From Patescibacteria group bacterium (GTDB lineage: Bacteria > Patescibacteriota > Patescibacteriia > PEXW01): a DNA stretch of 64,000 bases. Numbering within the stretch: position 1 is the first letter of the stretch; each line of letters opens with the position of its first letter. The notes beneath the pieces were generated by a model. That model saw only the letters and a list, made by a program, of their open reading frames with translations, was not told where the DNA came from and searched no databases. The position numbers and the translations under genes are program-made. The stretch is from positions 153,771 through 217,770 of the forward strand of contig JBAZBR010000001.1 of NCBI GenBank assembly GCA_041671325.1. Reading direction: 5' to 3'. Below, piece after piece: positions 10,218-15,743 of this stretch.

Positions 10218-10323
10218 TTGTCATTTCGAGCGGAGCAAAGCGAAGTCGAGAAATCTCGCCTTTACTAGACTAGATTCCTCCACTCCGTTCAGCCAAATGG
10301 CTGAACTTCGGTCGGAATGACAA
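10218..10323. repeat. Foldback MITE-like element, copy A (terminal inverted repeats TTGTCATTTCGAGCG / CGGTCGGAATGACAA)
   Basis: The terminal inverted repeats and internal hairpins (cgagaaatctcg; gttcagcc/ggctgaac) were read directly. It is related to copies at 13661 and 15606. Confidence 0.7.
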
Positions 10324-10354
10324 GTTTGTAAATTAACTAATAAATTACTTAAAT

Positions 10355-10858
10355 ATGGGAGATTTAATAAAACAATTCGGCATAGAACCCAGCCTCTTGA
10401 TTGCGCAAATAATTAATTTTGGCATTGTCCTGTTTGTCTTGTGGAAGTTTGCCTATAAACCAGTCCTAAAAGTATTGCGTGAAAGGCAAGCTAAAGTCAA
10501 AAAAAGTCTGGAAGATGCCAAAGCGGTGGAAATGAAACTGCAGGAAGCGGAAAAGATGAAACAGGAAAAGATTTTGGAAGCCAGGGGTGAAGCCGAGGCA
10601 ATTTTGGAGAATGCCTCTAAAGAAAGCGAAAGATACCGCCAACAGAGATTGGCGGAAGTCCAGTCCGAAATTGACGGCATGAAAGTCCATGCTCAGGCTG
10701 AAATTGTTGCCCAAAAAGCCCAAGCTTTGAATCAAGCCAAGGCCGAGATGGTGGATTTGGTAATTAGCGCAACCGGGAAAGTCGTGGGTAAATCCGGCAT
10801 TGAAAAAGTTAATAAAGCTTTAGTGGAAGAAGCGGTGGAGGAAACCAAGAATGTCTAA
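10355..10858 (+). CDS. atpF: F0 ATP synthase subunit b
   Basis: It has an N-terminal TM segment followed by a long charged coiled coil. Confidence 0.8.
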   Translation: MGDLIKQFGIEPSLLIAQIINFGIVLFVLWKFAYKPVLKVLRERQAKVKKSLEDAKAVEMKLQEAEKMKQEKILEARGEAEAILENASKESERYRQQRLAEVQSEIDGMKVHAQAEIVAQKAQALNQAKAEMVDLVISATGKVVGKSGIEKVNKALVEEAVEETKNV

Positions 10859-11258
10859 ATTTACAGTTAACCAATATGCGGCTGCTTATCAGGCTGCAGT
10901 CAAAGATAAAGCAGGGAAAGAGCGGGAAGTTATTGCCCATAATTTGGTAAAGACCTTGGCTTACCGCCGGCAAATAAAATTATTGCCAAGGATAATGACA
11001 GCTTTGGAAAGATTGATTGCGGAAGCTGGCGGGCCGATTGTGGTTAAAATTAAGGCCACCAGTAAACCAGATGAACAGACTTGCGGAATATTAAAACAAC
11101 AATTGGAAAAAGCCTTGGGCCGGGAAGTAAAAGTCCGCTGCCAAGTTGACCCGAAAATTTTGGCCGGCATCAAAATCCAGATAGGGGACCAATTAATCGA
11201 CAATTCCCTAGCTTCCAGGTTATTTAATTTAAAAAAACAACTTTTAACTAATTCCTAA
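10851..11258 (+). CDS. atpH: F1 ATP synthase subunit delta (OSCP), short form
   Basis: Its position between atpF and atpA and its C-terminal LAGIKIQIGDQLIDNSL segment support the call. Confidence 0.7.
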   Translation: MSKFTVNQYAAAYQAAVKDKAGKEREVIAHNLVKTLAYRRQIKLLPRIMTALERLIAEAGGPIVVKIKATSKPDEQTCGILKQQLEKALGREVKVRCQVDPKILAGIKIQIGDQLIDNSLASRLFNLKKQLLTNS

Positions 11259-11261
11259 ATT

Positions 11262-12764
11262 ATGCCCCACACTATCGTTGAAGTCCTTAAAACCCAACTC
11301 CAAAATTTTCAAGCCCAAGTCGCCAAAACCACAGTCGGCCATGTCATCGAAGTCGGCGATGGCATTGCCCGGGTTGAAGGCTTGTCCGATATCCGTTCAA
11401 GCGAAAAAGTAGTTTTTGCCTCTGGCGCCCAGGGCGTAGCTCAGAATTTGGAAGAAGACACGGTTGGCATCATGATCATGAAAGGTGCGGTAGAAGTTAA
11501 AGAGGGTGAAGAAGTTCGGGGTACGGGAGAAATACTGTCTGTTCCCGTGGGCCAGGAAATGGTTGGTCGGGTAGTAAACCCTTTGGGTGAAGCTATTGAT
11601 GGCAAGGGCGCTATTCAAACTAAAACGACTTATCCCGTAGAAAGGATCGCGCCCGGGGTAATTACCCGGGAATCAGTTAAACAGCCCTTACAAACCGGTA
11701 TAAAAGCTATTGATGCGCTTATCCCAATTGGCCGAGGTCAAAGAGAATTAATTATCGGTGATAGACAAACTGGCAAGACTGCGATCGTCATTGACACCAT
11801 TATCAATCAAAAAGGCACGGGTGTAACTTGCATTTATGTAGCCATTGGCCAAAAAGCCTCAAAGATCGCGCGTATTGTGGCAGAACTTGAAAAGCACGGA
11901 GCTATGGAGCACACTATCGTGGTTTTAGCCAACGCCTCAGATCCGGCAGCTTTATCTTTCCTGGCACCCTATGCTGGCTGTGCCATGGGTGAATATTTCA
12001 TGGATCAAGGCAAGGATGCTTTGGTAATTTATGATGACCTCTCCAAACACGCTTGGGCTTACCGCCAAATTTCCTTGCTTTTGCGCCGTCCCCCAGGCCG
12101 GGAAGCCTACCCAGGTGACATTTTTTACTTGCATTCCAGGTTGTTGGAACGCGCTGCGAAATTAAACAAGGATATGAAAGGCGGTAGCTTGACGGCTTTG
12201 CCGATTATTGAAACCCAAGCTGGGGATGTTTCGGCTTACATCCCGACTAACGTGATTTCCATTACTGATGGCCAAATTTATTTGGAATCAGATTTGTTTT
12301 ACCAAGGCCAAAGGCCGGCTTTGAACATCGGCTTGTCAGTATCCCGCGTAGGTTCAGCCGCGCAAAATAAAGCCATGAAAAAAGTAGCAGGCAAATTAAG
12401 GTTAGACATGGCCCAATACCGGGAATTAGCGGCTTTTGCCCAATTCGGTTCAGATTTAGACGCAGCCACTAAAGCGCAGTTGGAAAGAGGCAAGCGGACA
12501 GCAGAATTATTGAAGCAGGGCTTACTTAAGCCAATACCCGTTACCCAACAAATTTCAGTTTTGTATGCAGTCACCCAAGGTTTGCTAGATGAAGTTGCCG
12601 TTGAAGATATCCAGGCCTGGGAAAAAGCTTTTTTACACGCGCTTTCAACCCAGCAAAACAAGTTTTTGGAAAAATTGGCCAAATCGGCCGAGTTGACTCC
12701 GGAAATCGAGAAAGAACTCAAGGAGATAATCGTGAATTTTAACGCTTTAAGGAAAAATAAATAA
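11262..12764 (+). CDS. atpA: F1 ATP synthase subunit alpha
   Basis: It has the Walker A motif GDRQTGKTA and full alpha-subunit length. Confidence 0.95.
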
Positions 12765-13660: not shown

Positions 13661-13763
13661 TGTCATCCCGAGCGAAGTCGAGGGATCTCGTTAACCTAAA
13701 TATTTAAGAAATCGAGATTCCTCCGCTTCACCCCGCAATGCGGGGTTACGGTCGGAATGACAA
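13661..13763. repeat. Foldback MITE-like element, copy B. It starts immediately after the atpG stop codon. A partial extra copy with a CCCCGCGGCCGCGGGG palindrome lies at 13795-13836.
   Basis: The left end is TGTCATCCCGAGCGAAGTCGAGGGATCTCG. The right end is GATTCCTCC...CGGTCGGAATGACAA. Confidence 0.7.
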
Positions 13764-14220
13764 ATAAAAAACGTACATTACAAAATCTGATTACCCTCAT
13801 CCGGCCCCGCGGCCGCGGGGTCGCTCGCAATGACAGATAAAAAGTGTTCCTTACAAAACGAAAAAGCGCCTTGAAGTTATCGCAGCGCTTTAGTAAAGAT
13901 AATTCAATTACAGAGGTTTTCTGGACACTACGGTAAAAAATCCGTCAATGTAAAGAATCTGGAAGAGTTCAAATTTTTTAATACACAGGCCATTAAGGTA
14001 ACCCTTAAGTTCTGTGGGTGTAACCACTTCAACATGGTAATCATAAGCAATAACCACTTTTTTACCCCTTTCCTTTTGTGTTTATACAGGCTAATTTAAT
14101 TAGATATGTTAACAAAAGTATGAATATTTGTCAAGCCATTTATGAAATGAAAGTTTTAATTTCTAAATAACATTAGGAATTAAAATTTCTAGTTCATAAT
14201 CAATTTATCTAAAAACACTT

Positions 14221-15600
14221 ATGTCAAGCAAAGAAGGAAAAATTACTCAAATCATCGGGCCGGTTGTCGACGTGCATTTTGAAGGCGAGCTGCCCTCGAT
14301 TTATACGGCAATAAATATTGAAAGAAAAGATGATAAACCTTTAGTTTTGGAAGTCCAGCAGCACACTGGTGCCAACACCGTACGTTGCGTGGCTATGGGC
14401 TCAACAGATGGCTTGCAACGCGGTGTAGTTGCCAAAAACACCAATGCGCCAATTTCCGTGCCAGTCGGGCCGGAAACTTTGGGCAGGATTTTTAATGTTG
14501 TGGGTGATGTGGTTGATGGCGGGCCAGAAGTGAAATCCAAAAAGCGTTATCCCATCCATAGGGAATCTCCGAAATTCACTGACCAATCCACCAAGGCTGA
14601 AGTCTTTGAGACTGGGATAAAAGTTATTGATTTGATTTGCCCAATTGTCAAAGGCGGCAAGGTAGGTTTGTTCGGTGGCGCCGGCGTGGGCAAAACCGTG
14701 GTCATCCAAGAATTAATCCGGAACATTGCGGCTGAACACGGTGGTTATTCAGTTTTTGCTGGGGTTGGCGAAAGGACCCGGGAAGGCAATGACCTTTACC
14801 ATGAAATGACGGCTTCCGGCGTTATTAAAAAAACCTCAATGGTATTCGGCCAAATGAATGAACCCCCAGGCGCCCGTTCCCGCGTGGCCTTGTCTGGTCT
14901 GGCCGTGGCTGAATATTTCCGCGACGAAGAGCAAAAAGACGTTTTGCTTTTCATTGATAACATCTTCCGCTTTACCCAAGCCGGTTCAGAGGTTTCAGCC
15001 CTGTTAGGCCGCATCCCTTCAGCCGTGGGTTACCAGCCAACCTTGGCCGAAGAAATGGGCGAATTGCAGGAAAGGATTACTTCCACCAAAAAAGGCTCCA
15101 TCACTTCAGTCCAAGCGGTGTATGTGCCGGCTGATGACTTGACTGACCCGGCACCAGCCACAACCTTTGCCCACTTGGATTCTACCGTTGTGCTTTCCCG
15201 CTCTTTAAGCGAACTTGGAATTTATCCGGCAGTCGATCCTTTGGATTCGTCCTCGACAATTTTAGATCCGGCGATCGTGGGTGAAGAGCATTACCAAGTA
15301 GCTCGCCAAGTCCAGAAAGTTTTGCAACGTTATAAGGACTTGCAAGACATTATCGCCATTTTGGGCATGGAAGAATTAAGTCCTGATGACAGAATTACGG
15401 TTTCCCGGGCCAGAAAAATCCAAAGGTTCTTATCTCAGCCATTTTTCGTGGCTGAACAATTCACTGGCACTGCAGGCAAATATGTCCCACGAGCTGAAAC
15501 CGTTAAAAGCTTCAAGGAGATTTTAGAAGGCAAATATGACGAGGTGTCAGAGCAAGCCTTTTATATGAAAGGGACAATTGAGGACGTGAAGATAAGTTAA
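14221..15600 (+). CDS. atpD: F1 ATP synthase subunit beta
   Basis: It has the Walker A motif GGAGVGKTV and a DELSEED-like region. Confidence 0.95.
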
Positions 15601-15605
15601 ATTAC

Positions 15606-15743
15606 TTGTCACCCTGAGCCTGAGTATTATGAAGGCGAAGGGTCTCCACAAGTGTAAATAATATTTATAAAGATTCTCCCGCCTGCCTCGCCAGTGCGAG
15701 TACGGTGGGCAGGTCCCCCGCAGTCGCGGGGTCAGAATGACAA
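15606..15743. repeat. Foldback MITE-like element, copy C. It contains the inner palindrome cccgcctgcc...gtacggtgggcagg, which is also inserted in a pseudo-tRNA at 39116-39152.
   Basis: The terminal inverted repeats are TTGTCACCCTGAGCC / GGGGTCAGAATGACAA. It begins 6 nt after the atpD stop. Confidence 0.7.

Follow-up and report, generated by a model that had tools for sequence, protein, structure and literature searches.

Inverted dimers of a TGTC-tagged, probably REP-type repeat in the intergenic gaps of a Patescibacteria ATP synthase operon

The atp operon and its repeated elements

The subject of this work is a group of short repeated elements located in the gaps of the ATP synthase (atp) operon of a Patescibacteria group bacterium, within a stretch of 64,000 nucleotides (hereafter the window; positions 153,771 to 217,770 of contig JBAZBR010000001.1) that forms part of a 618-kb contig of a metagenome-assembled genome. 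The operon is encoded on the plus strand and comprises an atpI-like gene (8781-9056), atpB (9056-9805), atpE (9922-10155), atpF (10355-10858), atpH (10851-11258), atpA (11262-12764), atpG (12764-13660) and, beyond a gap of 560 nt, atpD (14221-15600) and atpC (15752-16170, with the start corrected by alignment with five relatives). The homologues of its AtpG protein come from organisms named Patescibacteria or Parcubacteria, the closest named group being Uhrbacteria.

A sequence-only reading of the window had placed three foldback elements in this operon and had labelled them as miniature inverted-repeat transposable elements (MITEs) with shared terminal inverted repeats (TIRs). The three elements are indeed present and align to one family, and each of them is an inverted dimer of units that carry a TGTC tag. 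The first element (E1, 10218-10323) occupies the atpE-atpF gap and is built of a left unit on the plus strand (10218-10257; stem ATTTC/GAAAT) and a right unit on the minus strand (10271-10323; stem ATTCC/GGAAT, distal hairpin GTTCAGCC/GGCTGAAC). The second one (E2, 13660-13763) lies directly 3' of the atpG stop codon; its true start had to be shifted to 13660/13661, where ATGTCA is found instead of TTGTCA, and it consists of a left unit on the plus strand (13660-13689; stem ATCCC/GGGAT) and a right unit on the minus strand (13714-13763; stem ATTCC/GGAAT, distal hairpin CCCCGCA/(T)GCGGGG). The third one (E3, 15606-15743) is located in the atpD-atpC gap, 6 nt past the atpD stop and 8 nt ahead of the true atpC start, and comprises a left unit on the plus strand (15606-15646; stem ACCCT/AGGGT) and a right unit on the minus strand (15670-15743; stem ATTCT/AGAAT) with two distal hairpins. 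Two elements, E2 and E3, therefore follow closely behind stop codons, as had been noticed. A solo unit on the minus strand (E2b, approximately 13787-13836), missed in the sequence-only reading, carries the tag CTGTC, the stem ATTGC/GTAAT including one G.T pair, and the distal hairpin CCCCGCGG/CCGCGGGG; E2b and its 3' flank repeat the right unit of E2 in tandem, at a spacing of 73 nt (repeat family D1). E1 and E3 lie between cistrons, and E2 and E2b are bounded by the stop codon of atpG on one side and by a terminator-like hairpin (13861-13891) on the other. This putative terminator implies that E2 and E2b would belong to the 3' untranslated end of an atpI-to-atpG transcript.

A covariance model of the single unit (R1), built on 55 short units from many genomes and run against the window with filters off, matches E1 at 10216-10259 (33.3 bits, E = 8.7e-6), E2 at 13658-13691 (35.3 bits, E = 2.9e-6) and E3 at 15604-15648 (30.8 bits). 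The long imperfect palindromes described earlier are borne out by folding: as RNA, the whole elements reach -45 to -55 kcal/mol with z-scores of -4.7 to -6.4 (-44.9 kcal/mol and z = -5.75 for E1, -49 kcal/mol and z = -6.4 for E2), and none of 200 shuffled sequences folds equally well, while as DNA they reach -21 to -26 kcal/mol with z-scores of -3.6 to -5.7. An assembly artefact can be ruled out, because over 9,326 nt, a stretch that includes E3, the window agrees with an independent assembly (L002) at every position.

The shared ends of the elements are real as far as the matches are concerned. The proposed TIR consensus, TTGTCAYYCYGASCG, occurs eight times in the window with at most two mismatches, compared with 0.95 occurrences expected from shuffled sequences; eight matches were reached in none of 100 shuffles, and seven of the eight fall within 10218-15743. 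It is the interpretation of these ends as TIRs that has to be given up, as they consist of the tag and one stem arm of separate units. The inner motifs GAAGYCGAGRRATCTC and GATTCCTCC, which had been described as a shared core and its partner, are likewise common to the three elements and correspond to the second stem arms together with the tail of the unit.

Anatomy of the unit and covariation of its stem

All seven units of the window fit the formula TGTC-stem-GA...GA-stem'-C. The unit begins with an unpaired 5' tag, (T/C)TGTC, in which TGTC is invariant in all 55 seed units, and continues with the first arm of a covarying 5-bp stem (an A followed mostly by pyrimidines), a GA step, a variable distal hairpin, a second GA or a close variant of it, the second arm, and a tail in which a conserved C directly after the stem is followed by T or C (CTC, CCG, CTN). 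Inside the 5-bp stem and the GA/GA steps two or more further pairs are formed, and in the distal part some units have a GCGAAGC-type mini hairpin and others a longer, G+C-rich one. The canonical unit reads as nine positions with two non-Watson-Crick pairs and a 3-nt loop, and many units contain distal inserts of 20-55 nt. We take the GA steps to be tandem sheared G.A pairs and the GCGAAGC middle to be a known stable mini hairpin, both as predictions. Two units face each other tag-outward around a short spacer, and this inverted arrangement allows the whole element of about 100-140 nt to fold back as well.

In the window, the stem pairs differ among the units and match within each of them, with ATTCC/GGAAT occurring twice. 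The same holds for an alignment of 145 distinct units from genome loci of 100 species (A5), in which the basal stem is 100% paired, even though it must be kept in mind that the basal stem of the seed was pre-selected for pairing and that A5 was fitted to the model. Cells with changes on both sides of a pair number 189 in this alignment, versus 58 +/- 5 in shuffled data, and 97% of the cells are paired, versus 9-63% when the partners are slid out of register. The first stem pair is A-U in 145 of 145 units and the second U-A in 140 of 145. The inner pair of the seed, which was not pre-selected, also covaries (GC 32, CG 9, AU 5), and among candidates with short loops 80 stems are perfect and 14 have one mismatch. 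The units show no excess of G.T pairs, the wobble signal expected of RNA; such pairs are nearly absent.

The relationship between the two units of an element was analysed across the whole of the fetched DNA, which contains 342 distinct dimers. Their outer stems are fully complementary to each other in only 28%; the remaining 72% are heterodimers with mismatched outer stems (C.A, T.G). In 75% of the dimers, both units have an exact stem partner within themselves. The stems internal to the units are therefore better kept than the pairing between units, which argues for hairpin units and against TIRs. Both the heterodimer statistic and the control with slid partners are independent of the pairing bias in the seed and in A5.

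Turnover of the elements among relatives

Relatives were taken as the contexts of AtpG homologues that are 70-86% identical, which gave seven loci of 12-21 kb. No elements are found in L003, which has a GTAG-type hairpin after atpG instead, or in L252 and L257. L005 carries two near-identical elements in the atpG-atpD gap, L008 and L255 each have one in the atpD-atpC gap and atpG-atpD junctions of only 6 and 9 nt, respectively, and L253 has one in the atpH-atpA gap. The reverse complement of E3 aligns with the forward sequence of the L253 element, double distal hairpin included (alignment A4), the right unit of E3 being homologous to the left unit of its counterpart in the opposite orientation; hence, the same subtype is found in a different gap and in the opposite orientation. 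This observation, together with the relatives that have elements in other gaps or none, indicates that the elements are mobile and dispensable, and agrees with the earlier view of them as repeats and not as conserved operon structure. A clade-specific subtype is marked by the distal hairpin TCCCGC..GCGGGA. Next to E2b, the flanking sequence can be aligned with that of the first of the two L005 elements in the atpG-atpD gap, and the occupation of this gap is therefore old.

All unit matches in the window, in the 9.3 kb beyond it and in the loci of the seven relatives, that is in about 205 kb of the clade, fall in atp gaps; 73 kb of the 618-kb contig were read, and the seven units found there are all in the atp operon. 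One element is also present between atpF and atpH of another Patescibacteria genome, from the Moraniibacteriota (L155). The enlarged atp gaps of the relatives were searched for degenerate units and none was found at E < 1; to the eye, the hairpins behind atpE look somewhat like decayed units, a likeness on which we base no claim. The same gaps also host a gene similar to those of RAYTs (REP-associated tyrosine transposases, where REP stands for repetitive extragenic palindromic sequence), GTAG repeats, a cassette with an antisense open reading frame (ORF), and solo G+C-rich hairpins. We interpret the atp gaps of this clade as a hot spot at which insertions are tolerated or to which they are targeted, and not as proof of function. 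We assigned no formal probability to the concentration of elements in them, as the independence of the insertion events is uncertain. It is not a general trait of the family, because atp genes are missing from 239 of the 240 family loci among the matches listed in the collections.

Several of the other occupants of these gaps deserve a description of their own. In L253, the atpG-atpD gap (10898-11600) contains a gene for a 168-aa protein of the Y1_Tnp (RAYT-like) family, flanked by a GTAG-type repeat, GGAGTAGAG..CTTTAG..CTCTACTCC; further GTAG-type copies lie in the atpH-atpA gap of L253 (7880-7945) and after atpG in L003 (10905-10965). The repeats and the Y1_Tnp gene look like a classical REPIN-RAYT system residing in the gaps of the same operon. 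The recurrent cassette combines the hairpin AAAAAGCGCC...GCGCTTT with a short ORF of 36-78 aa on the other strand, whose product seems to be hydrophobic in relatives. The cassette is found in the window at 13861-14140, in L003 at 11030-11330, in L005 at 11020-11310 and twice in L253, at 7945-8345 and 11600-11950; in L005 and L253 it also has a conserved stretch CTGTCAACCCCTGAAGGGAAA...CTGACCCACCTCTTCAA. The window copy includes the terminator-like hairpin mentioned above, which sequence comparison shows to be common to L003, L005 and L253 and which separates E2b from a minus-strand ORF of 49 aa (13908-14057), seen as part of the atpG-atpD cassette in several relatives and preceded by a promoter-like site on the same strand (14134 to 14106, TTGACA-17-TAACAT). 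Directly 3' of atpE, and upstream of E1, there is a resident stem-loop, AGCCTTGTCTTGCTCCGCAACTGCGGGGCTGGACAGGCT (10166-10204, plus strand), recognized from the sequence and from comparison of gaps; a hairpin is present at this position in all four relatives compared, and the resident one does not match the covariance model of the unit. The distal hairpin of the clade-specific units, (G)TCCCGC-TAC-TGCGGGA(C), is also found alone in the atpB-atpE gap of L253 (6385-6420), and a similar sequence, CTCCGCAACTGCGGGG, is located at the tip of the resident hairpin behind atpE (window 10178-10192). These hairpin sequences may be what is left of units, or else a mini-palindrome of separate origin.

Distribution of the family

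Copies outside the clade, for which the sequence-only reading had suggested a search, number in the hundreds, in other genomes as well as in phage contigs. A narrow 27-position pattern modelled on the ends of the window elements matches at least 120 stretches of species-representative genomes from more than ten phyla; the genome matches listed include numerous lineages within the Patescibacteria, and besides these Acidobacteriota, Bacteroidota, Alpha-, Beta- and Gammaproteobacteria, Planctomycetota, Verrucomicrobiota, Chloroflexota, Omnitrophota, Firmicutes and Spirochaetota. A pattern of the dimer reveals the same architecture in at least 120 stretches of phage contigs: it is shared by nearly all of the 157 elements among the phage-contig matches listed, and several contigs contain 4-7 copies. 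Unit matches at E < 0.001 amount to 226 in 703 kb. A pattern specific for E1 and E2 matched four foreign contigs, but not the present genome, in a scan of metagenomes, and E2 had no blastn match in the plasmid collection. The elements have no match in Rfam 15, neither at gathering score nor at E values up to 10, and a search of the literature by literal sequence gave no match to 16-mers of the canonical unit and only primers or unrelated work for 11-mers.

According to crude ORF calls, the elements are mostly flanked by genes of the same transcriptional direction, and the distance from the stop codon to the element is 0-20 nt in 29 of 89 cases. A minority of the family elements are nested in larger palindromes. 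Some genomes and phage contigs contain head-to-tail arrays of 4-7 dimers (L152, 1755-2217; L070; L095), and one Patescibacteria genome has four dimers at a spacing of 117-118 nt. Tandem amplification at one site is therefore open to the TGTC family as well.

Comparison with known repeats

REP superfamilies tagged by GTAG or CGTC were described by Di Nocera, De Gregorio and Rocco (2013, BMC Genomics 14:522; PMC3733652). The CGTC group includes dRS3 of Neisseria and RPE-4 and RPE-6 of Rickettsia, and TGTC is a frequent variant of its tag; the stem opens with A-T pairs and the tail has 3 nt. Its members occur for the most part as inverted dimers, many of them heterodimers, and such a dimer can form a single larger hairpin; they are located near the 3' ends of ORFs, they have no dedicated transposase, and they are reported from Proteobacteria, Chlorobi, Bacteroidetes, Spirochaetes and Thermotogae. 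The units analysed here share with them the TGTC tag, the A-T opening of the stem, the arrangement in inverted dimers or heterodimers, the lack of a recurrent adjoining transposase in the fetched loci, the site just downstream of ORFs and the occurrence in several phyla. They differ in that the published CGTC stems are uninterrupted over 8-9 bp and closed by loops of 4-5 nt, whereas our units have 5 bp, the GA/GA steps and a variable distal part that ranges from a mini hairpin with a 3-nt loop to a pair of hairpins with a combined length of about 55 nt; the tail is CTC/CYN instead of the CCA of the published CGTC consensus. Besides, the distribution extends beyond the phyla published for the CGTC group to Patescibacteria, Acidobacteriota, Planctomycetota, Verrucomicrobiota, Chloroflexota, Omnitrophota, Firmicutes and phage contigs. 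Compared in this way, by description, the CGTC/TGTC-tagged REP dimers are the closest described kind, and the TGTC family adds a new member to that kind, or a fifth family, although it may also be one of the four families already published.

In terms of architecture, the closest match are the REPINs, which are known together with the RAYT transposases (Bertels and Rainey 2011; PMC3116915). Both have two inverted palindromic units around a spacer, a hairpin of about 100 nt as the moving unit and solo remnants, and both are intergenic and make no target duplications. REPINs, however, carry tags of the GTAG type, are restricted to particular lineages and are tied to a RAYT gene present in one copy, which has REPINs on its own flanks, while no RAYT gene flanked by TGTC units was found in the window or in the fetched loci, where the only RAYT-like gene (in L253) has flanks of the GTAG type. 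The TGTC family also spans many phyla and phages, even though a clade-specific subtype exists.

The comparison with REP- and ERIC-like elements made in the sequence-only reading is apt. Like MITEs, ERIC, Correia and BOX elements, the TGTC dimers are short intergenic repeats that do not code for protein, are transcribed along with neighbouring genes and can form hairpins in mRNA; unlike them, they show no target duplication, end in hairpin units instead of double-stranded TIRs bound by a protein, and have no sequence relation to any of them. The subterminal hairpins of the IS200/IS605 insertion sequences provide a model for the recognition and cutting of a tag plus a hairpin: there, too, a hairpin in single-stranded DNA is combined with an adjacent guide or tag, and no target duplication is made. 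In this general comparison, the TGTC dimers differ by the absence of a transposase gene between the units and by the arrangement in inverted pairs as opposed to distinct left and right ends.

Nature of the elements and a model of their spread

Taken together, we consider it likely that the elements are inverted dimers of a TGTC-tagged repeat of the REP type, and that they are selfish or passenger DNA and not a new, atp-specific regulator. By analogy to the REP/RAYT systems, the units would fold as hairpins in single-stranded DNA, and an enzyme that recognizes the tag and the hairpin, for which an HUH/Y1 transposase may serve as a model, would copy them in trans. The units would then persist wherever insertion is tolerated, in compact genomes mainly just behind stop codons, and the intercistronic atp gaps of this clade would be such a tolerated or targeted hot spot. 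In the atp transcripts, hairpins of -45 to -55 kcal/mol would probably be passive barriers to 3' exonucleases, or obstacles to ribosome release near the stops, and any effect on the mRNA would be a side effect and not the reason why the elements exist.

An enzyme was sought in the fetched loci, about 2 Mb in total, where no recurrent transposase adjoins the units and none is flanked by unit ends. All-against-all clustering of 3,529 ORFs yielded only families of phage capsid, portal and terminase proteins, whose position relative to the elements is not fixed.

A number of points weigh against the assignment to mobile REP-type hairpins. Among these loci no mobilising enzyme was found: the Y1 transposase of L253 is flanked by a different repeat, of the GTAG type, the Y1 homologues in three phage contigs are not adjacent to TGTC units, and neither the window nor L258 contains a Y1 homologue. 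No copy of the clade lies outside the atp operon in our sample, and mobility within a genome would thus have to be deduced from the comparison between genomes. Nearest-neighbour DNA energies give about -3 kcal/mol and z-scores around 0 for lone short units, that is, they predict no short hairpin, and the unit hairpin consequently rests on covariation. The pre-selection of the seed stem and the fitting of A5 to the model lean towards pairing; perfect stems might also stem from the correction of palindromes by template switching, in which case no structural selection would be involved; and the GA/GA steps are only a candidate for a tandem G.A pair. Finally, the analysis of the context of family elements was based on crude ORF calls.

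A broader variant would combine all copies into one pan-bacterial mobile family carried by phages and moved by an enzyme of a kind other than the flanking RAYT, with the copies in the atp gaps of this clade being targeted to them or selected there as interchangeable mRNA hairpins, which would determine the output of subunits. We regard this as improbable.

Alternative explanations

The most serious competitor of the selfish-repeat interpretation is a role of the elements in the operon itself, as intercistronic RNA elements that were exapted to set the stoichiometry of the ATP synthase subunits by protection from exonucleases, cutting by a double-strand RNase or ribosome stalling, and are kept by selection. 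Every member of the family in the 205 kb of the clade is in an atp gap, as is the one in L155; the stoichiometry steps down at two places, after atpE (c subunit) and after atpD, and these are where E1 and E3 are found; the RNA folds are highly stable; E2 and E3 start 0-6 nt past the stops; and the same gaps of relatives hold other kinds of G+C-rich hairpins. In E. coli, REPs located up to 15 nt from a stop lower expression (Liang et al. 2015) and REPs at 3' ends stabilise the mRNA (Newbury et al. 1987), both as cited in PMC12306157. By analogy to these E. coli REPs, a block to 3' exonucleases or hindered ribosome release is plausible for E2 and E3. Against a role in the operon, the element-free junctions in close relatives are very short, 6-9 nt between atpG and atpD (L008, L252, L255, L257) and at most 6 nt between atpD and atpC (L005, L257), which indicates that the elements are dispensable, and relatives without any elements exist, hence they are not needed for the expression of ATP synthase. 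The occupied gap varies between genomes and one subtype is inverted relative to transcription, G.U pairs, which are common in helices of functional RNAs, are almost absent, and nearly all of the listed collection loci have no atp genes. The tuning of subunit stoichiometry would accordingly remain a minority reading, weakened by the short junctions and the flip of orientation, and we hold it to be rather unlikely.

The label of classical MITEs, i.e. deletion derivatives of insertion sequences that have TIRs and are moved by a DDE transposase binding double-stranded ends, fares much worse. The size of 100-140 bp, the ends resembling inverted repeats, the intergenic location and the insertion polymorphism among relatives would all suit it, and a 7-nt repeat, AAAAGGG, flanks one metagenomic copy (L259). 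Across 345 copies, however, flanking direct repeats are no commoner than in the shuffled control, and the L259 repeat was rejected as a target duplication because it is not general. The supposed TIR stems are mismatched in 72% of the copies and the ends pair within their own units, solo units such as E2b exist, and neither a transposase gene bounded by these ends nor a related transposase-bearing element was found in the 2 Mb of loci; Di Nocera et al. (PMC3733652) also report no transposase for repeats of the CGTC type. It is thus very doubtful that the elements are MITEs of this kind.

Equally remote is the idea that the outward ends might serve as parts of promoters, with ATGACA at the right end matching five of six positions of the -35 hexamer TTGACA and an A+T-rich stretch following 17-18 nt further on. 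Candidates matching 9 of 12 positions are present at the end of E1, upstream of atpF (10317-10346, ATGACA-18-TAAATT), and at the end of E2 (13757-13786, ATGACA-18-CAAAAT), but there are 21 such sites versus 13.5 +/- 3.7 in shuffled sequences, matches of this quality are common by chance, and the end of E3 is only 8 nt ahead of the atpC start, which leaves no room for a promoter. A ribozyme or riboswitch, considered on account of the GUC/A tag and the GA pairs, was dropped, as there was no Rfam match or core motif.

Implications for annotation and for the study of orphan repeats

Repeats of this family inflate gene calls. The public call of atpC starts at a GTG inside E3 (15694) and yields a protein of 158 aa, while the true start, ATG at 15752, gives 139 aa; the 19 extra residues (MRVRWAGPPQSRGQNDKNL) are translated repeat, as seen in the alignment with five relatives (A6). 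A pseudo-ORF derived from the repeat and ending in ...ARNDR is found at 13757-13840. The model of the unit allows annotators to mask such sequences. What makes the family noteworthy is mainly how widely it is spread, that it reaches tiny genomes as well as phages, and that its copies are concentrated locally in a single operon: tagged repeats of the REP type are now extended to the very small genomes of Patescibacteria and to phage contigs, and a scaffold that is supported by covariation and common to different phyla sharpens the question of which enzyme copies the 'orphan' CGTC/TGTC repeats. For the effect that such hairpins may have on the expression of cistrons, the clade's atp operon offers a compact natural test bed, with homologous operons that have or lack elements in defined gaps.

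Other features of the window

The operon leader contains a promoter-like site, TTGACT-16-TACAAT (8515-8542, plus strand), which is conserved in six relatives, and a genome-specific insertion of about 165 nt (8575-8738, plus strand) that is absent from five relatives and single-copy according to BLAST. A fourth, TIR-less relative of the elements had been suspected in this leader (8600-8730), which did not hold: the insertion is not matched by the covariance model of the unit, even with filters off, and has no match in Rfam. It contains nested inverted repeats (ACCCTCC...GGAGGGT and ATCCTCC..GGAGGAT) and folds with a z-score of only -1.4.

Directly upstream of the atp operon there is a diversity-generating retroelement (5851-8481), consisting of a target ORF (5851-6462) with the variable repeat (6320-6456), a template repeat (6879-7015) and a reverse transcriptase gene (7375-8481; Pfam RVT_1). 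Among the 15 differences between the template and variable repeats, 12 are at adenines of the template. The window differs from the ENA record of the same contig at only four positions (6409, 6415, 6416 and 6424), all of them in the variable repeat, which suggests ongoing diversification. The retroelement cassette is absent from relatives L003 and L005.

Downstream of the atp operon, a heliorhodopsin gene (18993-19781) and a gene for a VirD4/TraG-like coupling protein (21566-24115; DUF8128 and T4SS-DNA_transf) are syntenic in relatives. A LOOT RNA (Rfam RF03000) is matched over its full length at 49418-49537 on the plus strand (84.1 bits). A gene for a serine recombinase of 558 aa (Resolvase/Recombinase/Zn_ribbon_recom; 58183-59859, minus strand) adjoins HTH, SocA_Panacea-like and GmrSD_C genes, and the region of approximately 55500-59900 could represent a defence islet or an element that has become integrated.

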